64,000 nt of DNA from an uncultured Thermoplasmata archaeon (lineage in GTDB: Archaea > Thermoplasmatota > Thermoplasmata > UBA10834), in contig CAVRDX010000001.1 in NCBI GenBank assembly GCA_963719945.1, forward strand, positions 512,001 to 576,000, read 5' to 3'. Below are positions 1-55,439 of the stretch, one piece after another (position 1 is the stretch's first letter; each line of letters starts with the position of its first letter). The position numbers were made by a program, and so were the translations under genes. The notes below the pieces were generated by a model. It was given only the letters and a program-made list of their open reading frames with translations, ran no database searches and had not been told where the DNA came from.

Positions 1-469
1 TCAGTATATCACAGATAAAGGCGGACCTGAAGACTCCATGATGTCTATCGCCCTGTCCATCGGGGATTCCACTGTAACGGCATCGCTGATCAATACTGGC
101 GAGCCGCATATGATAATCTTCACCGACGACATAGATGCGGTCCCAATGGTGAATATCGGGACACATGTCAATAAAGACAGAGCACGATTCCCAAAGGGGA
201 TGAACATCAACTATGTCCAGATCACGGGGCCTCATGACATAAGCGTGAGGACTTACGAACGAGGAGTCTACAACGAGAGCATGGCCTGTGGCACGGGATC
301 GACGGCATGTGCAGCGGCCTCACTGATGCTAGATAAGATACAGCCTGGAGCCGTCAACGTCAAGACTCTAGGCGGCATGCTCGTCATAGAAGTAGATGAA
401 AATGCGAGAGCGGTCATGACCGGTCCCGCAGAGAAAGCGTTTGAAGGGAAACTGACGGTCGAGGTATGA
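1..469 (+). CDS. dapF: Diaminopimelate epimerase, C-terminal part (5' truncated by window edge)
   Basis: Motifs NTGEPH, GMNINYV, RTYERGV..ESMACGTG (second catalytic Cys), GGML, MTGPA. Confidence 0.9.
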   Translation, partial: QYITDKGGPEDSMMSIALSIGDSTVTASLINTGEPHMIIFTDDIDAVPMVNIGTHVNKDRARFPKGMNINYVQITGPHDISVRTYERGVYNESMACGTGSTACAAASLMLDKIQPGAVNVKTLGGMLVIEVDENARAVMTGPAEKAFEGKLTVEV

Positions 470-504: not shown

Positions 505-1881
505 TCACTTCGCGGACTTCATCTTCTTGAGGACTTCCTCTGCAGCCTTGAGCGTGTTATCTATGTCCTTATCGGTATGCTCAGTGCATGTATAGAACGG
601 CTTGTCCGGATGGAAGTGCATGCCCCGTGCCAGCAGACCGTAATCGAACTGCTTCCGCGCGGTTTCATCCATCTTGAGGGTATGCCTGTAATCGCGGATA
701 TCGTCCAGCTTCTGGCCCTCCTTCCCGAACAGAACATTGAACGTCGATCCCGGACCCAGGGCTTTCGCATTGAATCCAAGCCTCTGGAACAGGTCGTTCA
801 ATCCATCCTGGAACTTGTCCGTGATCCTCATGAGGTATGGATAGGTCTCTGGCTGCTCCAGTATATCCATTGTCGCCATGCCTGCGGCCAATACCGTCGG
901 GTGTCCGTTGAATGTACCTCCATGGAAGACTCGATTGTCCTTTGCGCGGGTGACAGGGTTCACGACATCCATTATCTCCTCTTGTCCCAGGAACGCGCCA
1001 CACGGGAATCCGCCGCCGATGATCTTTCCGAGGCACATCAAGTCCGGAGTTATCCCGACCATGGTCTGTGCCCCACCGAGCTTATCCATCCTGAACCCGG
1101 ACATTACCTCGTCGAATATGAGGATGATATCGAGCTCCGTGGTGGTCTCCCTGACGGCCTTCAGGAACTCAGGTTCCCCTTCGATGAAGCCACGCTGTAC
1201 GGGCTCCATGATAACCGCTGCCAGGTCGTTCTTGTGGGCTTTCAGGAGCCGAATCGTGTCGTGGATATCGTTGAATGGGAGCACCTGCGTGCTCTGAAGC
1301 GTGTATTCTGATGTCCCCAGGGAACATGCGACGGCCTGAGGCGCGGCTTCGGGCCCTGCGACCTCTTCGCTCGGGGTCAGGCTCACTAGAGCCTCATCGT
1401 AGCATCCATGATAATGCCCCTCGAACTTAGCAATCCTGTTCCTCTTTTTGTATCCCCTAGAAACTCTAAGGGCGTGGAGCGTCGCCTCAAGTCCTGAATT
1501 GGTGAAGCGAACATATTCCGCGCATGGGAATATCTTTTCCAGACGCTGAGCCATCTTTGCTTCCATCTCGTGTGGAGCGCCGAATATCGCAGTTCCATCA
1601 GTGTCCAGCTGCTTCTTGATGGCCTCATGGACCTTTGGATGTCCGTGGCCGAGGATCATGGGCCCGAAGCATAGCATGTAGTCGATGTATTCGTTCCCGT
1701 CCAGGTCCCATATGTGGGATCCCTTGGCCTTGTTTGCATAGACAGGGTATGGCGGGTAGTACTTGACGTTCCCCGTCACGCCTCCTGGCAGGTACTCCTT
1801 CGCGAATTCGAACCATTTGGCGCTCTTCTGCGTTTTAGCCTTGTATTCAGCCACCGCGTCGTATGGTGTCATTTCAATCAC
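505..1881 (-). CDS. Class III PLP aminotransferase, HemL-like fold; probably a beta-amino acid or beta-aminoacyl-CoA transaminase rather than true HemL
   Basis: WDLDGNEYIDY, FTNSGLEA, YHG, FDEVMSGFR, GKIIGGG (PLP Lys). N-terminal PGGVTGNVKY and HGGTFNGHP differ from HemL PGGVNSPVR and QAGTLSGNP. Start overlaps the upstream stop (GTGA). Confidence 0.8.
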   Translation of the reverse strand: MIEMTPYDAVAEYKAKTQKSAKWFEFAKEYLPGGVTGNVKYYPPYPVYANKAKGSHIWDLDGNEYIDYMLCFGPMILGHGHPKVHEAIKKQLDTDGTAIFGAPHEMEAKMAQRLEKIFPCAEYVRFTNSGLEATLHALRVSRGYKKRNRIAKFEGHYHGCYDEALVSLTPSEEVAGPEAAPQAVACSLGTSEYTLQSTQVLPFNDIHDTIRLLKAHKNDLAAVIMEPVQRGFIEGEPEFLKAVRETTTELDIILIFDEVMSGFRMDKLGGAQTMVGITPDLMCLGKIIGGGFPCGAFLGQEEIMDVVNPVTRAKDNRVFHGGTFNGHPTVLAAGMATMDILEQPETYPYLMRITDKFQDGLNDLFQRLGFNAKALGPGSTFNVLFGKEGQKLDDIRDYRHTLKMDETARKQFDYGLLARGMHFHPDKPFYTCTEHTDKDIDNTLKAAEEVLKKMKSAK

Positions 1882-2645
1882 CCGAGGTATATCTTCTCTG
1901 GATCGAGCGCTCTGAGCGTGGAGATCTCCTTCTCGGTCGGTGGAGGGGTATTCTCCAGCTTAGGCGAGACCTTCAGATCCCATGGAGTGTTCTCCTTTAC
2001 CTTCTCCACAGTAGCTCCTGGGTGCAGGGACACCAGAGTCATCTCTCCAGTGACCTCATCGAACTTCATCGTGCCCAGGTTTGTTACGACGGCATATGGG
2101 CCGCCGCCCTGAAGCCCGAGCTTCTTCCAGGCTTCTTTTCCGTCCATGAATCCAGGACTGGTCTTGAAATCGACCTTCTCCACGAATCTGCGCTTCTCAT
2201 GTGGAGTTATCACTATGATCTTCTTGACGTTCGAGGCAATGTCACAAGCGCCACCGCTTCCAGGCAGTCTTACCTTAGGCGTCTTGTACTTGCCGATTAT
2301 CGTGGAGTTGATGTTGCCATATTTGTCGATCTGCGCCCCTCCGAGGAATCCAACATCAATCCTGCCGCCTTGAAGATAGTATGCGAACTGTTCGTACATC
2401 GAGCATACACTCTTCGCGCCGGTGACGAGGCATGGGTCCCCTATGGACAAAGGCATCCTGCTAGGGTTGGAACCGACTGCTCCGGACTCGTATACCATGT
2501 TGAGTCCGGGTGCCTGCAACTTCTTCGCGAGGTTGGCTGCCAGGTTGGGTATTCCCACACCGACCAGGACAGATTCTCCGTCCTTGAGTTCCCTCGCAGC
2601 GACTATGACCATCAGCTCACTTGGTGAAACTTCTGTCATCTTCAT
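1878..2645 (-). CDS. Family I CoA-transferase beta subunit (glutaconate/3-oxoadipate CoA-transferase type)
   Basis: VGVGIP, YESG (catalytic Glu), FLGGAQIDKYGNINST, LPGSGGACD; AGGAGG RBS before ATG 2645. Confidence 0.88.
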   Translation of the reverse strand: MKMTEVSPSELMVIVAARELKDGESVLVGVGIPNLAANLAKKLQAPGLNMVYESGAVGSNPSRMPLSIGDPCLVTGAKSVCSMYEQFAYYLQGGRIDVGFLGGAQIDKYGNINSTIIGKYKTPKVRLPGSGGACDIASNVKKIIVITPHEKRRFVEKVDFKTSPGFMDGKEAWKKLGLQGGGPYAVVTNLGTMKFDEVTGEMTLVSLHPGATVEKVKENTPWDLKVSPKLENTPPPTEKEISTLRALDPEKIYLG

Positions 2646-2652
2646 GACCTCC

Positions 2653-3570
2653 TCATACACTCCCATAATTCACAGGGGCACTGTAAGCTGCCTTCGGAAG
2701 GAGCTTCAATACCTTCTCTGACGAGAGCTTCTTCATGTATGCCGCACGGTCCTCCACTCCATATACCCACTCATCGAGGTACTTCATGGTCGTCTCGTGC
2801 TCCTTCGTTACATCATCCCATTGCATGTAGAACTCGTTATCCCTGTCGTAATATCCCTGGGTATAGGAGGGATGCGCACACCATGGCTCGCAGACCACCG
2901 CATGAGAGATGAAATCAGGTATCAAGGTCCTGTTCGGATCGGACCGGATGACCGACTCATCAACTATCTCCTCACAGCTTATGATGACCTTCTTGGCAGC
3001 GAACGCTGCATCCTTCTGTTCGCCAGTTATGCCCCAGATGTGACAGTTGCCCATAGCATCTGCCCTCTGGACATGCACGACGGCGACATCAGGGTTCAAG
3101 GGTGGCACGATGGATACCTCCTCGCCAGTGTACGGGTTGTTGATGGTCTTCATCAACGGGTTCTCTGGTGGCAGGTCCGAGCCGAGATTGGTCCTCATCG
3201 GGAGGAACGGCATCTTGGTGGCTCCCGCAAACAATCTTCCCGAGAGCCCGAAATGTGTGTACTCCTCAATCTCGATTGGATTTGGAACGCCCTTCTCAAG
3301 AGCCCTTCTGAAGCATCTTAGAGAGCCAACGCCAGGGTTCCCAGCGTAGCTGAACATCATCTTCTTGGCGCAGCCAGCTGCGATCATCTGGTCATAGATG
3401 ATGTCCGGCGTAGCTCTGCACAAGGTGAGGTCTTTGCGCTTCTGCCTGATGATCTCATGTCCTGCAGCGAACGGGATCATGTGAGTGAATCCCGCCAGGT
3501 ACACGGTGTCCCCGTCCTTGACGAACTTTGACACCGCTTCCTTCATTGTCATCGATTTCGTCGAATCCAT
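2653..3570 (-). CDS. Family I CoA-transferase alpha subunit (GctA-like)
   Basis: GFTHMIPFAAGHEIIRQ, PDVAVVHVQRADAMGN, HPSYTQGYYDRD; GGAGGGG RBS before ATG 3570. Confidence 0.88.
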   Translation of the reverse strand: MDSTKSMTMKEAVSKFVKDGDTVYLAGFTHMIPFAAGHEIIRQKRKDLTLCRATPDIIYDQMIAAGCAKKMMFSYAGNPGVGSLRCFRRALEKGVPNPIEIEEYTHFGLSGRLFAGATKMPFLPMRTNLGSDLPPENPLMKTINNPYTGEEVSIVPPLNPDVAVVHVQRADAMGNCHIWGITGEQKDAAFAAKKVIISCEEIVDESVIRSDPNRTLIPDFISHAVVCEPWCAHPSYTQGYYDRDNEFYMQWDDVTKEHETTMKYLDEWVYGVEDRAAYMKKLSSEKVLKLLPKAAYSAPVNYGSV

Positions 3571-3571
3571 A

Positions 3572-3997
3572 TCAGTTCCCCTCCAAATCGGGTGTGAACT
3601 TGAAACCATATCGGATTACGCCTTCTTCGACATAGACCTTCTTCAACTCCGCTTTGACGGGCATATCGAACTTGACCTCTTTCGGGTTGACATCGCTCAT
3701 CTGGCCTATGACCTTGGGGCCTTCCTCTAGCTCAACGATGGCGACAGGATATGACCCGCCGGACCTCATCTGTTCAGCGAACTCCGGAGGAGCGCCACCA
3801 GCGCCGATCAGAACGAAGGTGTGTATCTTGCCCTTTCCGCTGAGTTGGATTTCATCGAACTCGGACGAGGCGTTGCAGTACTTGCACACACCCTTCGGGG
3901 GGAAGTTGACGGCCCCGCACTTCTTGCACTTCTGGCCGACCATCTTGTATCTCTGGGGTATTGTCCTCCAATACATCGGGACTGAAACATGTGCCAT
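3572..3997 (-). CDS. DUF35 family Zn-ribbon/OB-fold protein (thiolase scaffold, PhlB-like)
   Basis: CKKC..FPPKGVCKYC Zn ribbon, ELEEG, YGFKF terminus; adjacent to thiolase and HMGCS-like genes. Confidence 0.92.
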   Translation of the reverse strand: MAHVSVPMYWRTIPQRYKMVGQKCKKCGAVNFPPKGVCKYCNASSEFDEIQLSGKGKIHTFVLIGAGGAPPEFAEQMRSGGSYPVAIVELEEGPKVIGQMSDVNPKEVKFDMPVKAELKKVYVEEGVIRYGFKFTPDLEGN

Positions 3998-4008
3998 ATC
4001 TGTTCACC

Positions 4009-5025
4009 TCACTTTAGGGCTCCCTTGAGTTTGAGGTATTGGATGTAATCGATGTACTCCTTCTTCTCAAGCTGAGCCTTCAGACTCGGATTTGCTTTCC
4101 TCTCGCCTACCACTTTGAAGCTCATTGCATCGCTACCGGCGCCAGAGCCATAGGAGACTACCATGATCCTGTCACCGACTTTTGCAGATTCGAGCGCGGA
4201 CACCAATCCAACCGGAGTCGACGCCGCTCCCAGGTCTCCCATTGTAGCGGAAACCATGCTGGATGCGAGCTTCGCAGGATCGATTGTCAGTTTTCCAGCG
4301 ACTGATGCCGGGGCCTTCGCATCAGCCTGATGAATAACCACATGGGCATAATCCTCGGGTTTGGAGCCAAGCTTCTTCATCAGCGAAGAGCAGGCCTTTG
4401 TCGTTGTGGAAACAAATGCAGATGCTGAGAACTTCTTTACACCCAAATCTTGGATCATGTCCTCGTTGGATGGTCTGAAGCGCTCACCGAAATGCTCCAT
4501 GGCATAGGATGCAGAACCCTCGAATTCCGCCATCAGGTTCTCCGAAGACAGAACGAAACCAGCAGCACCTGCGCCGAGGCCATGCTCCGTCGAATCCCAC
4601 ATGCTCGCCTTTGGCGCGTCACAAGCAGCAACGACCGCTACACCACTCGGATTCGCCTTGAGATGCTCGAAGGCAGATATCAACGCCTCCGTCCCTGCGC
4701 GCGTTGAGGAAGTATGGTCGCTGCAGAATGCAGAGTTCGGCATGCCGACATTTACGATAACTGTGCCAGACAACATCTTCTCTAGGTACGGTGCGGATGT
4801 CGATGCGAATGCGAACCTCGACACCTTATCTGCCGTCATCGGTACGGATGCCAGGGCACTTTTCGAGACCTTCGCAGCGGCTGTGAGGACGTCCTCATCA
4901 AAGCTCATCACCGACTTCTCGGCCACTCCTGGCGCCTGGAATGATCCCCATACCTTTGCATAATCTTCCTTCTTGATCCTGAGCCGTGGGACATATACCC
5001 CATATCCAGATATTCCAACTGCCAT
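4009..5025 (-). CDS. HMG-CoA synthase-like protein lacking the catalytic Cys and Glu (PhlA-like)
   Basis: Archaeal HMGCS fold motifs GYGVYVPRLRI, DED, GAGAA, SYGSGAGSDA, YIDYIQY. DHTSSTRAGT replaces FACKAGT and ASTSAPY replaces GSESHPY. Confidence 0.85.
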   Translation of the reverse strand: MAVGISGYGVYVPRLRIKKEDYAKVWGSFQAPGVAEKSVMSFDEDVLTAAAKVSKSALASVPMTADKVSRFAFASTSAPYLEKMLSGTVIVNVGMPNSAFCSDHTSSTRAGTEALISAFEHLKANPSGVAVVAACDAPKASMWDSTEHGLGAGAAGFVLSSENLMAEFEGSASYAMEHFGERFRPSNEDMIQDLGVKKFSASAFVSTTTKACSSLMKKLGSKPEDYAHVVIHQADAKAPASVAGKLTIDPAKLASSMVSATMGDLGAASTPVGLVSALESAKVGDRIMVVSYGSGAGSDAMSFKVVGERKANPSLKAQLEKKEYIDYIQYLKLKGALK

Positions 5026-5031
5026 CCAGAA

Positions 5032-6198
5032 TCACCTCTCCATAATAGACACGGAAACTGTGCCGCCGGACCCACCGACATTATGTATGAGCCCTCTCTC
5101 AGCGTTCTTGACCTGACGGACGGGTTTGTTGACCTGTCCACGCAGCTGGTTGAACATCTCATATGCCTGACCGGTCCCGGTGGAGCCGATCGGGTGCCCC
5201 TTGGATTTGAGTCCTCCGCTCGGGTTGATGGGCATATCCCCTCCAATCTGAGTATGCCCCTCCTCGATGAACTGACCTGCCTTCCCCTTCTCGCAGAATC
5301 CGAGATCCTCGGTTGCTAGAAGTTCGGCAATAGTGAAGCAGTCATGGACTTCAGCCAAGTTCATGTCCTTCGCTGTCCTGCCTGCCATCTTATATGCCTG
5401 ATCAGCAGCCCTTCTGCTGCCCTCGAGCGTGACTGTCCTTACCCTGTCATGTATTGCTAGGTAGTCACTCGATGTGCCGAAACCGGTGACATATATCGGA
5501 GTGTCCGTGAACTGCTTAGCGATCTCAGCATCGCATACCAGGACCGATGATGCGCCATCCGTAGTCGAGCAACAGTCGAACAGATTCAGAGGATATGCTA
5601 CGATCGGGGCCTTCATGGCCTGTTCCAAGGTAATCTCTCGTTGGAATTGAGCCTTGGGGTTCTGAGCCCCGTTCTTGTGGTTCTTCAATGCCACCATTGA
5701 TAGATGCTCCCTCTTGGTGCCGAACTCATGCATATGCCTGTGGGCTATGAGCGCGTAAAGACCCGCAAATGTAGTTCCAGCGAGCCTCTCGTATTCAGTG
5801 TCTCCAGACACGCCAAGCCAATACTTCTGCTTCATTCCAGAAACATCGGTCATCTTCTCGACGCCACCTGCTATGACCATCTTGTGGGCGCCTGAAAGAA
5901 CATCCATTATCGCGGCAACCAATGCATAACCACCGGATCCGCATGCGTTTTCAATCCTTACAGTGTGTATGTAGGGCAGTCCCGCGTACTCTGCGACAAG
6001 TGCCGACATGTTACCCAGCTGGAATCCACCGGACCCAAGGTTGCCAATGTATGCACCTTCGATCAGCTTCGGGTCGTAATTCTTGTCCACACTCGAAGCC
6101 ATGTCCTTGTACGCTTCAAAGAACAGTTCCTTTATTCCCTTCTCGGGAAATTCGCCGTACTTGCTCTGCCCTGCTCCGACAATCGCTACTTTCCTCAT
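5032..6198 (-). CDS. Archaeal (SCP2-type) thiolase / acetyl-CoA acyltransferase
   Basis: ENACGSG (nucleophile Cys), GVEKM, EVHDCF, GGLKSKGHPIGSTG, HNVGG. Confidence 0.92.
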   Translation of the reverse strand: MRKVAIVGAGQSKYGEFPEKGIKELFFEAYKDMASSVDKNYDPKLIEGAYIGNLGSGGFQLGNMSALVAEYAGLPYIHTVRIENACGSGGYALVAAIMDVLSGAHKMVIAGGVEKMTDVSGMKQKYWLGVSGDTEYERLAGTTFAGLYALIAHRHMHEFGTKREHLSMVALKNHKNGAQNPKAQFQREITLEQAMKAPIVAYPLNLFDCCSTTDGASSVLVCDAEIAKQFTDTPIYVTGFGTSSDYLAIHDRVRTVTLEGSRRAADQAYKMAGRTAKDMNLAEVHDCFTIAELLATEDLGFCEKGKAGQFIEEGHTQIGGDMPINPSGGLKSKGHPIGSTGTGQAYEMFNQLRGQVNKPVRQVKNAERGLIHNVGGSGGTVSVSIMER

Positions 6199-6513
6199 AT
6201 TAGGTCCCTCGCATCGCTCGCCACAACCTGCCACACGCACGAAGTCGTGCGACGGTCGTCAGCAGCCATTCTGCGAGTCTGGTATGGCAATTTTTCGAAA
6301 CACGAATCCGCCTATATAACCATTGGTGATTAACACACATCTCTGGACCGTTTTAGACAGCGTATTACGAATCCGTGTTATCGGTCACGGTCATTTGTTC
6401 CCTTTTTCGTAGTTTATAAACGACAGTTCGTAACAAGTTCGACGATAGCCTGAGCAGATGATAAATACGCAGTCTAATATTTAGTCAATCGAACATCTGA
6501 TGAGGTATTGCGC

Positions 6514-7785
6514 ATGAGGTCTTACAAGGATATTGCTCTGTGGAAAGACGTCACACCCGAAGAATGGAATGATTGGAAGTGGCAACTGAGAAACAGGATC
6601 ACGAGCGTAGACCAACTGAAGCAAGTAATCAACCTCACGCCTGAGGAAGAGGCTGGTGTCCGTGATTCGCTTAGGATTCTGAGAATGGCAATCACGCCAT
6701 TCTACGCGACCCTCATGGACCCTAACGACCCCCATTGTCCGGTTAGGATGCAGGCGGTCCCGACAGCCAAGGAGATCGATTTCAGCGAGGATGACATGGA
6801 GGACCCTCTCTTCGAGGACATAGACTCACCAGTCCACGGATTGACTCACAGATATCCAGATAAGGTACTCTTCCTGATAACCGATCAATGCGGCATGTAC
6901 TGCAGGCACTGCACTCGGAGGAGGCTCGCAGGTCAGACGGACACTGAAAGGGATTCTAATACAATCGATGCCGTCATAAAATACATCGAAGAGCACGAAG
7001 AGATACGCGATGTGTTGCTTTCCGGCGGTGACCCACTCACCGTGTCCGACAAGGTCTTGGAAAACATCATATCACGGTTGCAGGCGATCGACCATGTCGA
7101 GATTGTTAGACTGGGAAGCAGGACACCATGCGTCCTGCCTCAGAGAATAACACCTGAGCTATGCGATATGCTGAAGAAGCATCACCCCATCTGGCTCAAC
7201 ACGCATTTCAACCACCCAAAGGAGATAACCCCTGAAGCGAAAGCTGCTGTCGAGAGACTTGCGGACGCAGGTATTCCCGTCGGAAACCAGAGCGTTCTTC
7301 TCAAGGGCATAAACGATTGTCCAACGATAATGAAGAAACTCGTCCACGAACTTGTGAAGATGAGGTGCAGGCCATACTACTATTACCAATGTGATATGTC
7401 CCGAGGAATCGAACACTTTAGGACCTCTGTCGCCAAGGGTGTGGAGATCCAGGAGGCCTTGAGAGGACACACATCAGGATATGCCGTCCCATTGTTCATT
7501 GTCGATGCTCCTGGAGGCGGAGGGAAGATCCCGCTCAGTCCGAATTACTTCGTGAGCATGTCCGACAAGCGCATAGTGCTCAGGAACTATGAGGGCGGTA
7601 CTTTCCAGTACCCAGAGCCAAAGGACCGTGTCAGCACATGTCCACCTACCTGCAAGATGTGCAAGGATTACAGCAACATTGAGAGCAAGGAAGGTGTCGC
7701 GGGTGTTCTATCTGGAAATAAATTCGCGCTGATACCAGAAGGGAACGCAAGGGCCGAGAGACGCAAGCATTACGACAAACACTGA
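6514..7785 (+). CDS. kamA: Lysine 2,3-aminomutase (radical SAM, PLP)
   Basis: LTHRYPD, CGMYCRHCTRRR, SGGDPL, YQCD and VDAPGGGGK (Asp residues typical of lysine rather than glutamate aminomutases), C-terminal CPPTCKMC. Confidence 0.93.
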   Translation: MRSYKDIALWKDVTPEEWNDWKWQLRNRITSVDQLKQVINLTPEEEAGVRDSLRILRMAITPFYATLMDPNDPHCPVRMQAVPTAKEIDFSEDDMEDPLFEDIDSPVHGLTHRYPDKVLFLITDQCGMYCRHCTRRRLAGQTDTERDSNTIDAVIKYIEEHEEIRDVLLSGGDPLTVSDKVLENIISRLQAIDHVEIVRLGSRTPCVLPQRITPELCDMLKKHHPIWLNTHFNHPKEITPEAKAAVERLADAGIPVGNQSVLLKGINDCPTIMKKLVHELVKMRCRPYYYYQCDMSRGIEHFRTSVAKGVEIQEALRGHTSGYAVPLFIVDAPGGGGKIPLSPNYFVSMSDKRIVLRNYEGGTFQYPEPKDRVSTCPPTCKMCKDYSNIESKEGVAGVLSGNKFALIPEGNARAERRKHYDKH

Positions 7786-7882
7786 CGGCCTTATCAAACC
7801 CCTTAGGAAGCCATTTTGTTTAAATCCGAAACAATTAAGAATGAATATCATATCTTCGGATTCAAGCCTGCGAGGCGAGCCT

Positions 7883-9079
7883 ATGGACAGGAACATTCTA
7901 ATTGAGGAGTTGACGCACACTCCAATTGAACAACAGACTGTTGAATTCGTCGAAAGAAAAGGTATCGGCCATCCGGATAGCATTGCGGACGGGCTTGCCG
8001 AGAGTGTAAGCCGTGCACTGTCTCAGATGTATATCGAGAGATACGGAAGGATTCTCCACCACAATACTGACGAGACCCAGATCGTGGGTGGACAGTCTGC
8101 ACCGAAGTTCGGTGGCGGCTCGATCCTCGAGCCGATATACATACTCCTAGTAGGAAGGGCTACCACGAATGTCAATGGCGAGCGACTTCCGTACAGAACT
8201 GTCGCAATGAAGGCGGCATATTCCTACCTCGAGAAGACGTGCAAGAATCTCGACGTCGATTGGGACGTAGTCCTTGACTGCATGATCGGCCAGGGTAGCG
8301 TTGACTTGACGGGCCTCTACGAAACCCAGAGACTGTTGGCCAACGATACGTCGTTTGGTGTTGGATTTGCACCATTCAGCGAGACAGAGAAGATAACTCT
8401 CGAAACTGAGAGATACATTAACGGCAAGCTCTGGAAGAAGATGCCGGAGGTAGGCGAAGACGTTAAAGTCATGGCCTGCAGGAACGGCTCTAGCATCGAT
8501 CTTACAGTTGCGGCAGCGATGGTATCCTCCAAAATTCCAGACAAGAGCCACTACAAGAGCGTCGTAGAGGAACTCCGGGAGAATATCGCTGATTTTGCAT
8601 CAAAGTACACTAAGCGGAACCTCAGAGTGTTTGTCAACACGGCGGATGACTACAAGAAGAACATCTATTACCTGACAGTATCCGGCCTTTCGATGGAGAA
8701 CGGCGACGATGGATCTGTTGGCAGGGGAAATCGAGCTAACGGCCTCATCACGCCGATGAGGCCCATGAGCATGGAGGCATCAGCCGGCAAGAACCCTGTC
8801 ACACATGTCGGTAAGTTGTACAACCTGCTCTCGATCAGGGTTGCCGATGAGATCTACAAGATGGGCAAGGGTGACATACTGGAAGTTCACACGAGGATAC
8901 TGTCACAGATTGGAAAGCCCATCGATTATCCACAAGCGGCGAGTGCCAACATGATATTCGCGCCCAATGTGGACAAGAAGAAATATCAGAAGGAAGCAAC
9001 CGCAATCTTCGACGAGAAGCTCGCGACAATAAACAAACTGACTGACGAGATCGTCGCTGGTAAGTTGACAGTATTCTGA
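7883..9079 (+). CDS. mat: Archaeal-type S-adenosylmethionine synthetase
   Basis: [57 protein letters not shown]. Confidence 0.95.
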
Positions 9080-9118: not shown

Positions 9119-12100
9119 CTATGACCCTAGTTCTATTCTTTTGATCTCCTCTTCTCTATCTCTGAGGATCTTGGCCAGCTGCTCGAGCTCATCTTGGATG
9201 GATTGAAGCCTGCTCCATTCCTCCTCGAGCCTCTGTTCATCTTTTCGGATCGTCTCCTCGCGGTCTGAAATCTTCAGGTAGAGTCCGTCCAGTTCCTCTT
9301 TGCGGCGCTCGAGTTCCTCGAAAGTCTTCTCATCGACCGATGTAAGACCCTGCTTAGAGGCATCGACCTTCTCCCACAAGTCCTGGATTTCGGCTCGTTC
9401 ACGCTCAAGCCGTTCTAGCTCGATTATGAGGGTCTTCTCGCGGCTCTCAGTATCGCGTTCCTTAGCCTTGATCGATTCGTCCATGCGGCGCAATTCTAGT
9501 TCGCGCCTAAGGAGGGCATCCTCGTCTGGGGTGACAGGTTTCGGCTTAGATACGGCCATCTCCTTCGATATCTCAGCGACGCGTTCGCGCACTTCCTCCT
9601 CCAGCTTCTCCCTACGCTCCAATAGCTCCTCGCGCCACTTCTCGAGCTCAATACGGAGCTGGTCCAGCCCTGCATCCTTCTGTGCTATGGTGGATCGTTC
9701 TCTATCCAGCTCTATCTGGAGAAGCTCGAACTCATCTATTCCACGCTCTAATTCGACCACGCGCTTATCCAACGACTCCTCTTTGGCCCTAAGCGCCTCC
9801 TTCTCCTTTGAGATCTCATCAAGCACGGTCCTGTAATCGGATATTGATTGGTCAACACCTTGCTCTCGCATGTTCAGAGCAGTCTCCCGTGATGTCTGTT
9901 TCTCAAGGTGTGACTGTAATTCTGACTCTCTACGGACAAATTCGTCTTCTTGTGATGACAATCTGCTCTCGCGTTCCAGCAGGGCCGCCTCTTTCCCAGC
10001 GAGTACCGCTTCGACTTCCCCGGAGGCGCTCATCGCATTATCTATCTCAGCCTTCTGCTGTTCCAGCTCATTTCTGAGGCGTTCCAGCTCTTCTCTTTCT
10101 TGAGATGCAGCGATAGATTCGTCCTGGGATATGCGCTTCATCTCCGACTCCATCAACGCCAATGCAGTTTCTCGGGCCTCTAGCTCACTCATCTTCTTTC
10201 CAAACTCAGCTTCACTTGAGGATACGTGAGTGACCCGTTCTTGATGCTCCGCCTCAAAAGCAGATATCCGTTCGGATAGGCTCTTCTCAGCATCTGACAA
10301 TTCGGCCCTGAATGCTTCGAGCTCCTGTTCCTTGGTCTCCATCAGAGCTGATCTCTCCCGCAGCTCATCCTCTTTTGTTGAGATGTTGGCATTCAATTCT
10401 CTAAGGCCTGCATCCTTCTCTTCGAGCTCCCGTCTATGCGCTTCGATCTCTGCCTTGGATGCTGTTATGTCAGATTCCAATTTTGCAGCTGCAACCTCAT
10501 ACGATTCGCGATCGGCTGCGAGTGATTCGATGCTCTTATCCAATTGATCTCTATCGGAGTTGAATGATGAAACCTGATGCTCGAATTGACTCATCTTTTC
10601 AGCGAGGGTCGCTCTATCCGCGTTCAGGAGCGACATAGCCTCGTCAAGTGATACTCTCCTTCGCTCGATATCCTGCTCAAGAGAAGATAGCTCCTCCCGC
10701 TTGGATGCGCTCTGAGATTGAGTATCTGAGAGCTCGCCTCGGATCGTCTCAATCTCCCTCCGCTGTGATTCGATCTCCGACAACTGACTCTCCAGGTCAT
10801 TCTTGCCAGCCTTCAGCGACTCATCCTTCTCTGCAAGCCCCTGTTCCATGGATTCGAGGTCAGACCTGAGATTCTCGAGTTCGGCATTCTTGGTCTCAAC
10901 ATCCTTCTCTCTCTGCTCAAGTTCAATTGACCTCTGATCAAGTGTCTCAGCATGTTCGGTATGAGCTTTCCTGTGAGATTCGATCTCCACTCTTGATGAT
11001 TCGATCTCCGCCTGCATCCTCGCTAAATCATCAGATGCGCGGGCCCGTTCCTCCTCGAACAATTTCCGCTCTGCCTCGGTCGAACTGCGGATTTCATCGA
11101 GGTCGCTCTGGGCTCTATCAAACTCACGCTGGCGATCCTCGATTGCTCGTTCCTGTTCGGCCAGACGCTGCTCACGTCCACTGACTTCCTTTTCGAGTTC
11201 CCCCATCTCGCTTTTGACTGTCTCGAGAGCCGCCTCTGTCTGCGTCATCCGCACATCTCGTTCTTCCAATGAAGCCAGTTTGGCCGAGTACTCCGAACGC
11301 ATCTGTGCCAGGGCATCTTCCGATTCGCGCTTCGTTGCCTCCAATGACGCTTTTGTGGATTCGAATTCGTGATCTCTCGTCTTGAGATCTCTTTCCTTTG
11401 CACTGAGGCCGGATGCTATCTCATCCAATTCAATCTTCCAAGTCTCGAGCTCTGACTGCATGGATGATATCTCCATGGACTTCGCATCCAACTCATCCTT
11501 CGTCTTGTTGAATTCAGTCATCTTCTCGTCGACTTCGATACTCTTCTTCTCCAGTTCCGACAGCTCGACCTCATTCTTCACCAGTTGATCCTTCAGAACT
11601 CTTTCTCGCTCATCTAGTGTGCTTCGAGTCTGTTGTAGCATCTCGGCTGTCGATTTCAGATTATCTTGTTTTACTGCAAGTTCCCGCTCCATATCCTCGT
11701 AGCTCTCAGAGCGCTTGTTATGCTCACGCCTAATAAGGTCCAGTTCGACGCGCTCCTCCGCCATCTTGAGTTCTTGCGCGGCGATATCACTGGACCTCTG
11801 ATCCAGTATATTCTTCATCTCATCGACGGAGTAGCTCTTCTCTTCAATCTCCTTTCGCTCCTCCTCGATCTTTGCAAGCTTATCCTCATATGATGATTGC
11901 AGTTCGGAAATCCTCCTCTGCGTATCCGCGCTGGAGTTATCGAACGCGATCTTATCTTGCTCCAAGGAATTGCGGTCGAGAGTCAGTTTCTCCCTTGTAT
12001 CCTCGACTTCCTTGGCGAAAGAATTCTTCTCGTCCACGATTATATTCCGCTCTTCTTCGAGAGAATTCCGTTCTGCTTCGATTTTTGAACTCAGACCCTT

Positions 12101-13978
12101 GAGATCAATTTCACGCTTGGCGATCTCGGACATCTGTTCTGATAAGTTCGCATCTCTCTCCTTCAATCTGGATTCGAATTCCGATAGAGCGTCCTTCCTT
12201 GATGCGTACTCGCTTGAGAAGCGGTCTTCATCTGAGCGCAGCTTTTCCTCTCTTGTCTGCATCTCTGAAAGCTTCGAATTTGCCTCAGATTTCAACTGGT
12301 CGACCTCTTCAAGCAGTCTCTTCCGTTCATCATCCAGAGCAGACTGCCTCCGCTCACATGTCTCTTCCAACGATGCAGCGGTCTCCATCCGCTGTCGGCC
12401 CTCCTCCTCAACGGATGCAAGCTCCCTCTCCCGCTCGGCTATCTCCTCGAGCTTGCTAGTGACCTTTGCCTCTCGATCAGTCAGATTCTGTTCCTGAGAG
12501 ACGAGTCGGGCCCTGAGCGCATCGATCTCATGTGTCAAATGCGATACGGATTCTTCTCGCTGGGATACCTCGGATATGGAACGATCTATTGCCGAGCGTC
12601 TCTCGGAGAGTTCGTCCTCCTGGACCGTCCTTATTCGATCCAGTTCCTTCCTCTCGGAGTCAATTGACGCCCTCTCCTTCTCAAGCTCTACTTTGGACAG
12701 AGCGAATGTGTGCTCCTTCGCCTCCAATCCCGTTTCCCTTGAGCGAAGTTCTGCAGATAGGCTCTCCAGGGCGTTCTCCTTCTCCTGATGAATCCTCATC
12801 CGCTCGTCAAGAGACCGTCGGTCTGATTCAATTCTGGCCGTCAGGTCGACAAGGCGGCTCCGCTCACCTTCGAGACGCTTGGATTCGCCCTGTATCTCCA
12901 TCATCTTCTGTTCGGTCTTGAGGCTGACTATCTTGTCCAGCTGAAGATATCTTGCCTCTATCTCCTTCTCGACAGATTCAAGGTTGGCCTTCTTCGCATC
13001 CAACGCATGCATCTCTTTTTCCAGCTTGGCCTTCACCTTGGATGTCAACTGGGCTTCGTCACGAGTGAGTCTCACTCGGAAATCCTCGAGTTCTTTTCTC
13101 GTCTGGCGCACCTTGACGAGAGTCTGTCGAACTTCTTCACGTTCCTTTTCCAATGAGGCCCGTTCCGAAATTAGCTTCTGACCATCCTCATTTAATTTTC
13201 GTTCTTTTGAAAGGAGCTTCTCACGAGTTTCCTCCAGATTCTCCGCCTCTATCATCATCTCGTCTTGGCGGAGTTCTGCCAGAAGCTTGGCCTCGACATC
13301 TACCCTTATGGGCATTTGTTGCGAATCATCTGGAGAATATACTTCGAGTTCGCGCTGGATGGCCCCGAGCTTGGATGACTCCAATGTGGAAGACTTGAGT
13401 GATACTATGCAGACCGCTTTCTGCAATGCCACCAAGTCCCTTATGCTCTGAAGCAGCCTCATGACGCTTACAAATTTATTGTTCGTGATCAGGTACTCGA
13501 GAGAATCTATCAGGACCAGCCGTCCTCCACCCTCTTCCAAGAACCTCTTGATCGTCAAATTAAGCCGTTCGAGGTCCTTTGGACCTATGGCGTCCTCGCT
13601 CATCGCATTTGTGAGCCAGAATACTGGCACGTCCTTGAGATTGAAAGCCTTCTTGAGATTCTTCGGGTAGGTCCTGGAGACAATCATGCCCCTTTTGCCA
13701 TCTGCAAGGAATGATAGGAACAGGGAGTATGCGATTTCTGGCCGCTCTTCCTCCACGAGATAGGTCACAGAAGGCTCCAGCTGCCTGAGCTTATGAATAT
13801 CAGCCTTGGCCTCGTCAGCTCGGGGAATCTCATTTGGCTCTTCAGGGACGGTAACTCGCTCAGCCTGGGATAAAGGCTCGACCGCCTGGTCGGATATAGG
13901 TTCCTCGACCTTTGCACTGCTCTCTCTCGCCTTATCTCTCAAACCCATGGTGCCGGGCTCCATGTGTATGACGTTCAT
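9119..13978 (-). CDS. Giant protein: N-terminal DUF835 (inactive KaiC/RecA-like) domain plus about 1350-1400 aa Glu/Arg/Lys-rich coiled coil
   Basis: YLVEEERP..GMIVSRTYP..VFWLT..IGPKDL..LIDSLEYLITNN (DUF835), then a nearly Pro-free heptad-rich region; 1619-aa uninterrupted ORF. Confidence 0.85.
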   Translation of the reverse strand: MNVIHMEPGTMGLRDKARESSAKVEEPISDQAVEPLSQAERVTVPEEPNEIPRADEAKADIHKLRQLEPSVTYLVEEERPEIAYSLFLSFLADGKRGMIVSRTYPKNLKKAFNLKDVPVFWLTNAMSEDAIGPKDLERLNLTIKRFLEEGGGRLVLIDSLEYLITNNKFVSVMRLLQSIRDLVALQKAVCIVSLKSSTLESSKLGAIQRELEVYSPDDSQQMPIRVDVEAKLLAELRQDEMMIEAENLEETREKLLSKERKLNEDGQKLISERASLEKEREEVRQTLVKVRQTRKELEDFRVRLTRDEAQLTSKVKAKLEKEMHALDAKKANLESVEKEIEARYLQLDKIVSLKTEQKMMEIQGESKRLEGERSRLVDLTARIESDRRSLDERMRIHQEKENALESLSAELRSRETGLEAKEHTFALSKVELEKERASIDSERKELDRIRTVQEDELSERRSAIDRSISEVSQREESVSHLTHEIDALRARLVSQEQNLTDREAKVTSKLEEIAERERELASVEEEGRQRMETAASLEETCERRQSALDDERKRLLEEVDQLKSEANSKLSEMQTREEKLRSDEDRFSSEYASRKDALSEFESRLKERDANLSEQMSEIAKREIDLKGLSSKIEAERNSLEEERNIIVDEKNSFAKEVEDTREKLTLDRNSLEQDKIAFDNSSADTQRRISELQSSYEDKLAKIEEERKEIEEKSYSVDEMKNILDQRSSDIAAQELKMAEERVELDLIRREHNKRSESYEDMERELAVKQDNLKSTAEMLQQTRSTLDERERVLKDQLVKNEVELSELEKKSIEVDEKMTEFNKTKDELDAKSMEISSMQSELETWKIELDEIASGLSAKERDLKTRDHEFESTKASLEATKRESEDALAQMRSEYSAKLASLEERDVRMTQTEAALETVKSEMGELEKEVSGREQRLAEQERAIEDRQREFDRAQSDLDEIRSSTEAERKLFEEERARASDDLARMQAEIESSRVEIESHRKAHTEHAETLDQRSIELEQREKDVETKNAELENLRSDLESMEQGLAEKDESLKAGKNDLESQLSEIESQRREIETIRGELSDTQSQSASKREELSSLEQDIERRRVSLDEAMSLLNADRATLAEKMSQFEHQVSSFNSDRDQLDKSIESLAADRESYEVAAAKLESDITASKAEIEAHRRELEEKDAGLRELNANISTKEDELRERSALMETKEQELEAFRAELSDAEKSLSERISAFEAEHQERVTHVSSSEAEFGKKMSELEARETALALMESEMKRISQDESIAASQEREELERLRNELEQQKAEIDNAMSASGEVEAVLAGKEAALLERESRLSSQEDEFVRRESELQSHLEKQTSRETALNMREQGVDQSISDYRTVLDEISKEKEALRAKEESLDKRVVELERGIDEFELLQIELDRERSTIAQKDAGLDQLRIELEKWREELLERREKLEEEVRERVAEISKEMAVSKPKPVTPDEDALLRRELELRRMDESIKAKERDTESREKTLIIELERLERERAEIQDLWEKVDASKQGLTSVDEKTFEELERRKEELDGLYLKISDREETIRKDEQRLEEEWSRLQSIQDELEQLAKILRDREEEIKRIELGS

Positions 13979-15967: not shown

Positions 15968-16366
15968 TCACTTCTCAATCAGCTTGATCAGCGTAGCTGT
16001 CCTCAGGACTCCTGGAAATGCTCTCAGTTCGTCGACTCTTTTGTTCAGTTCGTCCAGGCTATCCGCCCTCAAACGCACCGCGACGTCGAACTCGCCTGAA
16101 CATTCGAACACGCTTTCAGACAGCTCAGTCGCTTTCGCCTTGACCGCTGGAGTCCTACCGACATGCGTGTCGATCAGCACGATCCCCTCGAATCCGACTG
16201 GGGTTGTCTCTATCGTGAACTTGCGAATGACTCCCTCGCGAACGAGCTTCTCTATCCTGGCACGGACCGCTCTTTCAGTCAGATTGACCCTGCGGGCGAT
16301 CTCCGTATTCTTCATCCTTGAGTTGTCCCTCAGGAGGTTAAGGATCTTTACGTCGGTATCGTCCAT
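15968..16366 (-). CDS. Lrp/AsnC family transcriptional regulator
   Basis: MDDTDVKILNLL..NSR..EIARRVNLTERAVRARIEKL..GVI HTH; SGEFD effector domain. Confidence 0.92.
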   Translation of the reverse strand: MDDTDVKILNLLRDNSRMKNTEIARRVNLTERAVRARIEKLVREGVIRKFTIETTPVGFEGIVLIDTHVGRTPAVKAKATELSESVFECSGEFDVAVRLRADSLDELNKRVDELRAFPGVLRTATLIKLIEK

Positions 16367-16510
16367 GAATCCGGGTATACGTCGTTCCTATTTTCGTACC
16401 TTTCGATGAAAAACATGCAAAAACGTCGTTTATGCCGGGTTCGCACCCCGGCAGACGCCCCCTAGAGTACACATATGATCCCTAGGGGTGTGTCTTGAAT
16501 AGGGTTTACT

Positions 16511-28173: not shown

Positions 28174-29100
28174 TCAGAGTTCGACCCTTACGCCTTCGCA
28201 ACCGACCTTGACCGAGTATGGTCTTCCGCCTGCATCTATGATGGCGTCACATACTTCAGCGGGATGGTCGGTCAGTGCAATCATGCTTCCGCCACCACCG
28301 GCTCCAGTGAGTTTAGCACCATATGAATGACTCGATGCTGCATCGATTAACCTATCAAGGGTCGGATGACCAACACCCAGAGATATGAGCAGGGAATTGT
28401 TCTCTGTCATCAGATGACCTATCTTGACCTTGTCATTTTTGCGCATCGCATCCATGCCATCCAAAACTAGCTCCCCTATGCGATCCACTGCTCTCCTCGC
28501 ATCTAGGCTTGAGTCCACTAGCTTCCGGACCCCCTCCACCAATGGTCCAGTCAAGGCATGCGTTCCCGTGTATCCAATGACAAAGGTGAGGTCAGGGACT
28601 TCGCAATCGTGGATGTTCCACATACGATTGCCGTTCATTATGCACCACAAATGATTATCCATCTTCTCAGGGCTGACAAGGATTCCCCGTCCGTTCGTTG
28701 AGACGGATGTATCTGTTGGGCTAGCATTGCCTTGCACAGACAATTCCACCCGGAATGCTTTTCTTGCGATGGATTCCAACTCGAATGCGTTCTTCTCTGA
28801 CAGGAGGGAGCCAATGGTCGCCACGGTCACCGCTGCAGACGACCCCAGGCCGGATCCAGATGGAATCCATGATCGAGTCCTAATGTCAATAGGAGGACCA
28901 GCCCAAGCTTCATCCAACGCTGCCGATATATAGCCATGATGTCGACTGTTCATCGGTCGGCCGTTCACGAGATAGCTGCTAGCGGGTCTCATGCTGCTCT
29001 TAATTCTGAGATCTATGGCCAAAGCTAGCGCGGGCTTCCCGAATACCACCGCATGCTCGCCGAAGAGTATTATCTTCCCAGGAGCCGAGCACTTGCTCAT
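28174..29100 (-). CDS. mvk: Mevalonate kinase
   Basis: APGKIILFGEHAVV, PSGSGLGSSAA, QGNASPTD, AKLTGAGGGG. Confidence 0.92.
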   Translation of the reverse strand: MSKCSAPGKIILFGEHAVVFGKPALALAIDLRIKSSMRPASSYLVNGRPMNSRHHGYISAALDEAWAGPPIDIRTRSWIPSGSGLGSSAAVTVATIGSLLSEKNAFELESIARKAFRVELSVQGNASPTDTSVSTNGRGILVSPEKMDNHLWCIMNGNRMWNIHDCEVPDLTFVIGYTGTHALTGPLVEGVRKLVDSSLDARRAVDRIGELVLDGMDAMRKNDKVKIGHLMTENNSLLISLGVGHPTLDRLIDAASSHSYGAKLTGAGGGGSMIALTDHPAEVCDAIIDAGGRPYSVKVGCEGVRVEL

Positions 29101-29220
29101 CGAATCCCCCAGACATCACAGCAGATATATCCTTTTCTTAGACAGATGCCGAAGATTGAGATTGCCTGCGCGCAAGGGTTATTACTCGTTAATCACTTGT
29201 CGAAAGCACCAGTGGTCCAC

Positions 29221-30501
29221 ATGACAGGAACTTCAAGGATAGAAGGATTCTACAAGCTGAGCATCCCAGAGAGGCTCAAGATATTGAAAGAATTCGCGAC
29301 ACTGACCGACGAAGAAGTCAATGCTCTAGCGGGGACCAACGGACTCAACGTCGAAGCCGCGGACAAGATGATCGAGAATGCAGTAGGTACCTTCTCGTTG
29401 CCACTTGGGATAGCCACTAATTTCGTCATCAATGGAAAGGATACCCTGATCCCGATGGTCATCGAAGAACCATCGGTGGTGGCCGCCGCGTCGAACTCCG
29501 CGAAGATAGCGAGGGAGAGGGGAGGTTTCACTACTAGCAGCACTCCCCCGATAATGATAGGCCAGATTCAGATCACCAACATCGATGATCCAGATATGGC
29601 CGCCAAGAGCATACTTGACAACAAGATAGCCATAATCGACCTCGCCAACAAGCAGGACCCCATGTTGATAAGTCTGGGGGGCGGCGCCAAGGACATGGAT
29701 GTCAGAGTCATTCAGACGATAAAAGGTCCAAACGTGATCATACATCTGCACGTGGATGTGCGTGATGCCATGGGGGCCAACGCTGTTAACACGATGGCTG
29801 AGGCAGTGGCTCCGCTTGCTGAGAAATTGACCGGAGGGAGAGTCTACCTCAGAATACTATCAAACCTCGCAATATACAGACTGGCGAGAGCAGAGGCTAT
29901 CTGGTCAAAGGAAGCTATCGGCGGAGAGGATGTAGTCGACGGCATCATAGAAGCCTATTCGTTCGCTGATGCGGACCCGTTCAGATGCGCAACCCATAAC
30001 AAAGGAATAATGAACGGCATAGATGCAGTCATGATAGCGACTGGGAATGATTGGAGGGCGATAGAGGCAGGTGTCCACGCATATGCTTCGCTCAAAGGAT
30101 CGTATAAGCCTCTGACAATCTTCGAGAAGACCTTGGACGGTGACCTTCACGGCACTATCGAAATCCCAATGGCGGTAGGATTGATAGGCGGAGCGACAAA
30201 GGTTCACCCTACAGCTCGAGCATGCATCAGATTACTAGCTGTGACCAAAGCCAACGAACTTGCTGAGATCGGAGCAGCGGTGGGACTCGCCCAGAACCTC
30301 GCTGCACTGAGAGCACTCGCAACCATTGGGATCCAGAAGGGACATATGTCTCTTCATGCCAGGAATATAGTGGCCAGTGTCGGTTGTCCTCCGGAGCTGA
30401 TGCTGGAGGCCGTTGACATAATCGTAGGAGAACGCAAGATACGCATGGATAGGGCCAAGGAAGTCGTAGATGAGCTTAAACGAAAAAGGGGCCTCGGTTG
30501 A
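29221..30501 (+). CDS. hmgA: HMG-CoA reductase, class II
   Basis: MIENAVG, EEPSVVAA, DAMGANAVN, THNKGIMNG, GIQKGHMSLH. Confidence 0.93.
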   Translation: MTGTSRIEGFYKLSIPERLKILKEFATLTDEEVNALAGTNGLNVEAADKMIENAVGTFSLPLGIATNFVINGKDTLIPMVIEEPSVVAAASNSAKIARERGGFTTSSTPPIMIGQIQITNIDDPDMAAKSILDNKIAIIDLANKQDPMLISLGGGAKDMDVRVIQTIKGPNVIIHLHVDVRDAMGANAVNTMAEAVAPLAEKLTGGRVYLRILSNLAIYRLARAEAIWSKEAIGGEDVVDGIIEAYSFADADPFRCATHNKGIMNGIDAVMIATGNDWRAIEAGVHAYASLKGSYKPLTIFEKTLDGDLHGTIEIPMAVGLIGGATKVHPTARACIRLLAVTKANELAEIGAAVGLAQNLAALRALATIGIQKGHMSLHARNIVASVGCPPELMLEAVDIIVGERKIRMDRAKEVVDELKRKRGLG

Positions 30502-55115: not shown

Positions 55116-55439
55116 TGCCAGGAGAAGGCGGATGGCTGACGGTAGACTCGTTCTCAGAACGAGTCGGCTGAGGAAAGTCCCCTCTCCAAGAGAAGGTGGG
55201 CTGCCAGAGCAGCAGGGCGAGAGTCCTGGCAAGGGCACAGAAACGGCACAGCCTTGGGATAATGTGATGATTCCTTTGAGGATGAAGTCTCCCGAGGATT
55301 TGTTGAAACGGCGACACCCCACCGGAGCAAGCTCAAACGGCCGAATCGATTCTCATCGTCGGCGGGTAGAGTGCATTAGTCGAATGCCATCAACCTCGAA
55401 AGAGGCGAACAGAAAGGGGCTTATGTCCTTCACCTGGCA
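55116..55439 (+). ncRNA. rnpB: RNase P RNA
   Basis: GAGGAAAGTCC, ACAGAAA, TGAAACG, GGAGCAAG, AACAGAA...GGCTTA; P1 helix TGCCAGG/CCTGGCA. Confidence 0.95.

Follow-up and report, generated by a model that had tools for sequence, protein, structure and literature searches.

Introduction

Degradation of L-beta-lysine by Pseudomonas B4, a pathway credited to the Barker laboratory, reportedly proceeds through an N6-acetyl-beta-lysine transaminase (EC 2.6.1.65) and cleavage of 3-keto-6-acetamidohexanoate; to our knowledge, its genes have not been assigned. Another described system, a variant lysine fermentation in Candidatus Cloacimonas acidaminovorans, uses Kat, a 'HemL-like' protein that is encoded beside a thiolase in an organism without porphyrin genes, and that functions as a 3-aminobutyryl-coenzyme A (CoA):2-oxoglutarate aminotransferase (PMC3149608). 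Here, we analyse a locus of an uncultured Thermoplasmata archaeon in which kamA1, a gene for a putative lysine 2,3-aminomutase, is divergent from a six-gene operon that encodes a HemL-like class III aminotransferase (AT3), the two subunits of a CoA-transferase, a DUF35 protein, a protein resembling 3-hydroxy-3-methylglutaryl-CoA (HMG-CoA) synthase, and a thiolase. The locus lies at the start of a 64,000-nucleotide stretch of DNA, hereafter the window (contig CAVRDX010000001.1, positions 512,001 to 576,000), from a 1.78 Mb assembly that is 87% complete (GCA_963719945.1; G000).

We conclude that the operon is real, that it is conserved across one archaeal family, and that it is named wrongly by most databases, which label its products HemL and HMG-CoA synthase. 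Most likely, it serves the catabolism of lysine or a beta-amino acid by a variant pathway that is new. A preliminary description of the locus had suggested vitamin B12-independent breakdown of beta-lysine to acetyl-CoA and 4-aminobutyryl-CoA; judging from sequence and gene context, we consider the chances that this is correct to be about even. Our literature searches turned up no description of the operon cluster, or of the old Pseudomonas beta-lysine pathway.

Results

Gene calls for the window confirm the layout given in the preliminary description: six packed genes divergent from kamA and a gene for S-adenosylmethionine (SAM) synthetase, with dapF at the other end. The operon occupies positions 505-6240 of the minus strand, and the order and positions of its genes are as first placed. 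In the direction of transcription, the genes encode an archaeal ACAT-type thiolase (5032-6240, possibly starting only at the ATG at 6198), an HMG-CoA synthase-like (HMGCS-like) subunit (4009-5025), a DUF35 zinc-ribbon/OB-fold scaffold subunit (3572-3997; PF12172 and PF01796), the GctA-like alpha (2653-3609) and GctB-like beta (1878-2666) subunits of a CoA-transferase, and AT3, a GSAM-like class III pyridoxal phosphate (PLP) aminotransferase (505-1881; PF00202). Neighbouring genes overlap by 4, 14 or 38 bp, or are separated by gaps of 11 and 6 bp. A divergent promoter region of 267 bp (6241-6507) separates the thiolase gene from kamA1 (6508-7785, plus strand; probable start codon, an ATG, at 6514).

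The preliminary description had asked for a test of synteny of the operon with kamA across genomes. Synteny of the complete operon with kamA was seen in one family only, in which four genera supplied 12 loci and 11 of these repeat the whole layout. Orthologues of AT3 (67-95% identity) are present in 23 of the 24 other family genomes, G004 being the exception; sampling of the order and the class yielded none in any other family. Among 24 family genomes compared, precisely the same 19 carry kamA1 (identity of 74% or more) and the thiolase paralogue (80% or more). The five that lack both are three fragmented assemblies, G004, which also lacks AT3, and the complete genome G017. Since the two genes are adjacent, their co-occurrence cannot prove a functional link. 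The KamA-like genes of a sister family (f2) and of G048, a genome from another Thermoplasmatota class, have no operon genes alongside.

The product of kamA1 scores 601 against TIGR03820, above the cut-off of 525, and matches the lysine 2,3-aminomutase of Clostridium subterminale (2A5H) with 573 bits. The three cysteines of the CxxxCxxC motif are invariant, and the protein keeps both Asp293 (YQCDMS) and Asp330 (IVDAPGGGGK), the residues that bind the epsilon-amino group of lysine. Hence, kamA1 probably encodes a lysine-type 2,3-aminomutase, in line with its original assignment. Because both aspartates are retained, we rejected glutamate 2,3-aminomutase as a reading of KamA. The family has a second gene of this kind, kamA2 (G000:C3:297613-298887; L018:7620-8927), whose product is 66% identical to KamA1 and also keeps both aspartates; kamA2 is nearly universal in the family and lies apart from the operon, with genes for Dph6 and a histidine kinase as neighbours and without an AblB partner.

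We searched five family genomes, of which two are single-contig, for genes of known lysine and beta-lysine metabolism. KamD was found in none of the five; the positive controls, three Bacteroidales genomes with classical lysine fermentation clusters that were reached with a KamA-like query from contig L172, gave E-values of about 1e-274. BKACE/Kce was found in one of the five, G020 (G020:C1:771385-772248). By the combined presence of KamD and Kce, the family therefore does not belong among the classical lysine fermenters, and the original statement that the classical genes are missing from the window extends to all five genomes for KamD and to four of them for Kce. The absence of ablB beside kamA, noted at the outset for the window, extends to whole genomes: no match to TIGR03827 exceeded the cut-off in the five genomes, and a Methanosarcina control was matched. 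LysA was likewise not found in the five genomes; because of this, lysine is probably imported. The organism thus appears unable to make lysine via diaminopimelate and, given the peptide-uptake genes nearby, would draw lysine from outside the cell.

AT3 scores 363.7 bits against the HemL model TIGR00713, well short of the curated cut-off of 527.3. The PLP lysine is kept, but the HemL motif GGVNSPVR has become GGVTGNVK, so that Ser29 is replaced by Gly and Arg32 by Lys. AT3 also lacks the 'FE' pair to which Glu406 belongs, and its gating loop is longer by seven residues. As references for the HemL hallmarks, we used the solved structure 2HOY, a true HemL encoded in a hemA-hemC-hemD-hemB-hemL operon of a Rikenellaceae metagenome-assembled genome (MAG), and two full-length Bacteroidales HemL-type sequences; the full set of hallmarks needs 2HOY and the two full-length sequences, since the Rikenellaceae contig ends before the Glu406 region. 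Of 156 aligned sequences, 7 bear the signature: two are the Bacteroidales controls, and the other five come from the 150 cluster representatives that are closest. Neither hemA nor hemB was found in the five family genomes, and the control genomes were matched for both. We conclude from these residues and absences that AT3 is not a working HemL; on this check, which the preliminary description had itself named, the outcome favours that description. A second GSAM-like paralogue, which shares 38-39% identity with AT3 and is absent from the host assembly, occurs in three relatives (G010, G006 and G018; L043-L045). It keeps Arg32 but likewise lacks Glu406, and no role suggests itself for it where hemA and hemB are missing.

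A FastTree phylogeny places AT3 and its orthologues within a clade of 16 members (support 0.97), several others of which have telling neighbours. One member from another Thermoplasmata family (L054) has a Gct-like CoA-transferase neighbour, 53% and 46% identical to the window subunits, and its locus also carries an amidase and an amino-acid permease; another (L066) adjoins the A and B subunits of a SCOT-type CoA-transferase. On L172 (226-2863), a KamA-family gene lies 17 bp downstream of the clade member; its product is 41% identical to KamA1 (E-value 2e-80) and has Lys in place of Asp293, the acidic-substrate type. On L171 (3597-6288), which like L172 is an unrelated metagenome contig, a more distant KamA-like radical SAM gene adjoins the clade member, and a gene resembling those for non-ribosomal peptide synthetases (NRPS) lies beside the pair. 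Outside the tree, a close homologue of clade member P0192 adjoins a gene for an S58 (DmpA/BapA-type) peptidase (L174). Relatives of AT3 are thus found beside CoA-transferases (L054 and L066) and KamA-family genes (L171 and L172), which supports the initial interpretation. Because these neighbours include KamA-family proteins, CoA-transferases and a beta-peptidase, they point to the clade being one of beta-amino-acid transaminases, and we propose that AT3 is a beta-amino-acid transaminase acting on beta-lysine or beta-lysyl-CoA. The contexts of the closest homologues from outside the family (P0121, P0122, P0123, P0281, P0283, P0131 and P0297) contained no related genes. Among 151 Bacteroidales genomes, an AT3 query found only HemL-type matches, one in a hem operon and the rest without operon-gene neighbours.

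HMG-CoA synthase has a catalytic tetrad, E-C-H-N (PMC12960953). In the HMGCS-like protein of the window, this has become T-T-H-D (the third residue is Q in other genera), and the protein scores 181 against TIGR00748, below the cut-off of 353. The subunit is catalytically dead, to judge from its tetrad, and since it cannot act as a synthase, no pathway step needs to be found for it, a correction to the first picture of the locus. Its closest solved structures are those of PhlA, the PhlACB acyltransferase subunit that is not catalytic (9skh, 5m3k), marginally ahead of the archaeal HMG-CoA synthase 6esq_I, and we regard it as a PhlA/MucA-like pseudo-enzyme. The neighbouring thiolase, on the other hand, is predicted to be active: it matches 6ESQ_A with 307 bits and keeps all of the motifs of the archaeal ACATs (the Cys motif NACGSG (CGS), HDCF and GHP). 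Hence, the trio appears to be a hybrid, in which DUF35 and a dead synthase serve as the scaffold for a CoA-type thiolase that is competent by its motifs. We found no description of such a hybrid in the literature searched. Because no active synthase would pull the unfavourable condensation, we expect the thiolase to run in the thiolytic direction.

A whole-genome tblastn search identified a second trio, 165 kb away (G000:C1:679211-681839, equivalent to L017:7200-9840), with canonical components. Its synthase keeps E-C-H-N and scores 579 bits against TIGR00748 (cut-off 353), and its thiolase scores 587 against the model of the Methanothermococcus ACAT. The two thiolases are 46% identical and the two DUF35 proteins 37%, and the gene order is HMG-CoA synthase-thiolase-DUF35 in the canonical copy, as opposed to thiolase-HMG-CoA synthase-DUF35 in the window. 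The second trio is the mevalonate-pathway copy; thus, the operon is not a housekeeping set. A histidine ammonia-lyase gene (L017:5585-7327) adjoins the canonical trio, and genes for HMG-CoA reductase and a GHMP kinase lie apart from it, within the window (28174-30501). These findings bear on the plainest alternative, that AT3 is a HemL for tetrapyrroles, that the thiolase and HMGCS-like protein serve the mevalonate pathway, and that lysine is fermented by unrecognised analogues. The best family matches by name, to HemL, HMG-CoA synthase and acetyl-CoA acetyltransferase, favour it. We nevertheless find it scarcely credible, given the canonical trio elsewhere, the dead synthase, and the lack of hemA, hemB and, with a positive control, KamD. 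To this extent the initial interpretation is supported: the canonical trio and the failure to find hemA and hemB mark the operon as a specialised set of paralogues, distinct from mevalonate and heme housekeeping genes.

Trios with a dead synthase and the same gene order are not limited to the family. G048 carries one (L064, 8761-11289; tetrad T-T-Q-D), and another occurs in a MAG of the Asgard group Helarchaeota, SUPS01000069.1 (L073, 2776-5423; tetrad S-E-Q-D), the only addition from a scan of the genome collection with dead-synthase sequences, in which canonical HMG-CoA synthases dominated the matches. This suggests a wider, uncharacterised paralogue family of dead-synthase trios.

Loss of the tetrad raises another possibility, namely that the operon encodes a biosynthetic complex that makes a metabolite or solute derived from a beta-amino acid. 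Like PhlACB and MucABC, the complex would transfer acyl groups in a reaction of the Claisen or Friedel-Crafts type, or else it would catalyse a condensation that the aminotransferase draws forward. The loss is common to the HMGCS-like subunit, PhlA and MucA, and extends to Gln (in other genera) and Asp at positions three and four; in addition, the clade member on L171 and its KamA-like neighbour lie beside the NRPS-like gene. We judge this explanation decidedly unlikely. The window thiolase keeps HDxF, which is absent from PhlC and MucB, and is 46% identical to the housekeeping ACAT; the operon includes no carrier, ligase or tailoring genes; its surroundings concern peptide uptake; and related CoA-transferase/thiolase modules in the phylum sit in catabolic clusters.

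The alpha and beta subunits of the CoA-transferase match 1POI_A (E-value 1e-46) and 1POI_B (5e-51), respectively, and the catalytic Glu is kept in the beta subunit (YESG), placing the enzyme among the Gct-like family I transferases. An AibAB-type decarboxylase was rejected, since GctAB is far closer (1e-46 versus 7e-20) and the catalytic Glu is retained. The alpha-subunit gene is single-copy in the genome. Homologues with 41-51% identity occur in 56 of 400 other sampled genomes of the phylum (57 of 401 with G000), and in the loci that were fetched the CoA-transferase usually adjoins thiolase and DUF35 genes. Two such loci also carry acyl-CoA dehydrogenase and acyl-CoA ligase genes, and one a carboxyltransferase gene. 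We conclude that the setting of CoA-transferase/thiolase/DUF35 clusters in Thermoplasmatota is catabolic, of the beta-oxidation type.

The similarity to glutaconate CoA-transferase, an enzyme of five-carbon dicarboxylates, is also the starting point for a dicarboxylate route, in which beta-lysine would lose its 6-amino group and be oxidised to 3-aminoadipate; the Gct-like transferase would form the CoA ester of this, transamination would lead to 3-oxoadipyl-CoA, and the thiolase would release succinyl-CoA and acetyl-CoA. Such a route would suit the Gct-like transferase better and bypass the labile 4-aminobutyryl-CoA, and the acidic-substrate KamA-family gene beside the AT3-clade gene on L172 fits with it. 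However, it needs two transaminations and an aldehyde dehydrogenase, whereas the operon has one aminotransferase and no dehydrogenase, and kamA1 is of the lysine type rather than the acidic-substrate type. We therefore consider it very unlikely.

The divergent promoter region contains elements that are invariant in an alignment of nine genomes: TATATAAC (6313-6320), TTCGTA (6406-6411), TTCGTAAC (6427-6434) and ATAAATA (6461-6467). TTCGTA and TTCGTAAC form a direct repeat, and ATAAATA lies about 47 bp before the kamA1 ATG. A 16-mer that overlaps the first repeat (6397-6412) shares 13 of its 16 bases with a second site (16384-16399), which precedes the start codon of an Lrp/AsnC gene (15968-16366, minus strand) by 18 bp. 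The product of that gene is nearest to LysM (NF040947, 110 bits, under the cut-off of 180). This match is weak, since chance alone would produce about 0.3 of the kind per window, and we offer the Lrp/AsnC gene as a candidate regulator of the operon only as a lead.

Two genes flank the operon and kamA1. The first, convergent with AT3, encodes a DapF-fold epimerase, of which the 3' end lies in the window (2-469, plus strand; full gene G000:C1:511609-512469, equivalent to L001:602-1462). It scores 226 bits against TIGR00652, over the cut-off, and has RLFE and GEPH where solved DapF structures have RIFN and GNPH; both changes are Asn to Glu, and both are kept in eight orthologues from three genera. 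With these changes, and with no lysA found in the family, the protein may be a racemase of lysine or another diamino acid rather than a biosynthetic DapF; the membership of its gene in the pathway is uncertain. The second encodes an archaeal-type methionine adenosyltransferase, the SAM synthetase (7841-9079, plus strand; PF01941, 560 bits). This gene gives the single tblastn match in the genome and is syntenic with kamA1 in 11 loci. Since it is the only copy, we read it as a housekeeping gene whose link to the operon is probably incidental.

The DNA immediately before the window encodes OppD/F, an M20 peptidase and an amidohydrolase. Elsewhere in the window are a gene (9119-13978, minus strand) whose product, of 1619 aa, has DUF835 at its N terminus and is otherwise free of recognised domains, an archaeal RNase P RNA (55120-55435), and DUF835, KaiC and archaeal PheRS-beta genes. 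The RNA and the latter genes mark the host as an archaeon, and the closest database proteins bear the name "Thermoplasmata archaeon".

Discussion

Our data suggest the following scheme. KamA1, by homology and by its specificity residues, would convert L-lysine to (3S)-3,6-diaminohexanoate (beta-lysine). AT3 would then pass the 3-amino group to an oxo-acid acceptor and the GctAB-like transferase would form the thioester, in either order, so that together they would yield 6-amino-3-oxohexanoyl-CoA, which the ACAT-type thiolase would cleave to acetyl-CoA and 4-aminobutyryl-CoA. AT3 would have to act on the six-carbon skeleton itself, because KamD is absent and Kce is absent from four of the five genomes. 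More speculatively, the CoA-transferase might move CoA from 4-aminobutyryl-CoA to the next substrate, freeing 4-aminobutyrate (GABA), and a GabT-like enzyme encoded elsewhere in the genome (501.6 bits, against a cut-off of 506.65) could take GABA further. The lysine-type KamA and the failure to find KamD are the parts of the B12-independent proposal that stand; the choice of beta-lysine as the substrate of AT3, the order of the steps and the fate of 4-aminobutyryl-CoA are what we infer from context. As a whole, we put forward tentatively, at somewhat below even chances, an undescribed, B12-independent lysine route of this family, in which KamA is followed directly by beta-transamination, CoA transfer and thiolysis of 6-amino-3-oxohexanoyl-CoA by a thiolase/DUF35 complex of the mevalonate type, the synthase subunit of which has turned into a structural pseudo-enzyme. 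This route would be the lysine-specific archaeal counterpart of wider modules of aminomutase, beta-transaminase, CoA-transferase and thiolase.

Several points weigh against this scheme. 4-Aminobutyryl-CoA and free 3-oxo acids are chemically labile, and the operon includes no N-acetyltransferase to shield the 6-amino group. GctAB-type transferases are known for five-carbon dicarboxylates, not for amino-oxo acids. AT3 is 43-45% identical to the true HemL of Rikenellaceae, so overall identity does not discriminate between the two. Linkage of the whole operon to kamA is seen in one archaeal family only, where adjacency is inseparable from shared descent. In G017, the HMGCS-like, DUF35, CoA-transferase (two subunits) and AT3 genes, five in all, are kept without the thiolase paralogue or kamA1, and the dead-synthase trios of G048 and Helarchaeota have no kamA, aminotransferase or CoA-transferase alongside.

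The retention of AT3 and the CoA-transferase in G017 would also fit a scenario in which the operon breaks down a different beta-amino or 3-oxo acid, such as 3-aminobutyrate, acetoacetate or a peptide-derived beta-amino acid, and kamA1 is adjacent by inheritance and serves a separate purpose, for example the supply of beta-lysine as a solute or building block. Modules of AT3-like protein and CoA-transferase, or of CoA-transferase and thiolase, exist without kamA (L054, L066, L051 and L053), and kamA2 is nearly universal without being linked to the operon. We nonetheless regard this scenario as rather unlikely. As a paralogue in its own right, kamA1 occurs in exactly those genomes that have the operon thiolase, and a conserved divergent promoter serves both kamA1 and the operon. 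AblB, the maker of the known beta-lysine solute, was not found over the cut-off in the five genomes, and two unrelated contigs each have an AT3-clade gene immediately next to one of the KamA family.

If the lysine route is correct, it would be a third route of beta-lysine breakdown, beside the B12-dependent fermentation and the acetylation-dependent Pseudomonas route, and genes would be assigned to a beta-transaminase of the beta-lysine type. It would also mean that the archaeal thiolase/HMG-CoA synthase/DUF35 machine has been repurposed for catabolism with a dead synthase subunit, and it would help to account for the use of lysine as an energy source by abundant Thermoplasmata that degrade peptides. 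GGVNSPVR as opposed to GGVTGNVK, together with the 'FE' pair of Glu406, provides rules that separate true HemL from the many proteins mis-annotated as 'HemL'.

Comparison with described systems shows where each part of the locus is familiar and where it departs. Like the Pseudomonas B4 route, the proposed pathway would proceed by beta-transamination to a 3-oxo-hexanoate and a two-carbon cleavage to a 4-aminobutyryl derivative, and then to GABA; the Pseudomonas route differs in that the 6-amino group is acetylated and the cleavage is acetyl-CoA-dependent, whereas the window has no acetyltransferase and has a CoA-transferase and thiolase instead. The CoA-transferase subunits, of 318 and 262 aa, are strongly similar to those of GctAB from Acidaminococcus fermentans (1POI) and conserve the catalytic Glu, but their partners are a thiolase and an aminotransferase rather than glutamate fermentation genes. 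The trio resembles the archaeal thiolase/HMG-CoA synthase/DUF35 complex (6ESQ) in consisting of three adjoining genes of the same families and in its thiolase motifs, and differs in the lost synthase tetrad and, compared with the canonical copy of the same genome, in having the thiolase gene first. With PhlACB and MucABC (PDB 5M3K, 9SKH), it shares an HMG-CoA synthase-like subunit that lacks the tetrad and is presumably structural; unlike PhlC and MucB, which lack HDxF and move acetyl groups to carbon nucleophiles (PMC12960953), the window thiolase retains HDCF and resembles CoA-dependent ACATs, which places the trio outside that group in spite of its dead subunit. A parallel in genomic logic is the Kat pathway (PMC3149608), which likewise starts with KamA, uses a 'HemL-like' class III aminotransferase to turn a beta-aminoacyl compound into a 3-oxoacyl-CoA, and has a family I CoA-transferase and a thiolase for its last steps. 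The family described here differs in lacking KamD in the five genomes and Kce in four of them, and in having a transferase that is Gct-like rather than AtoAD-like and an archaeal ACAT set in a DUF35/dead-synthase scaffold.

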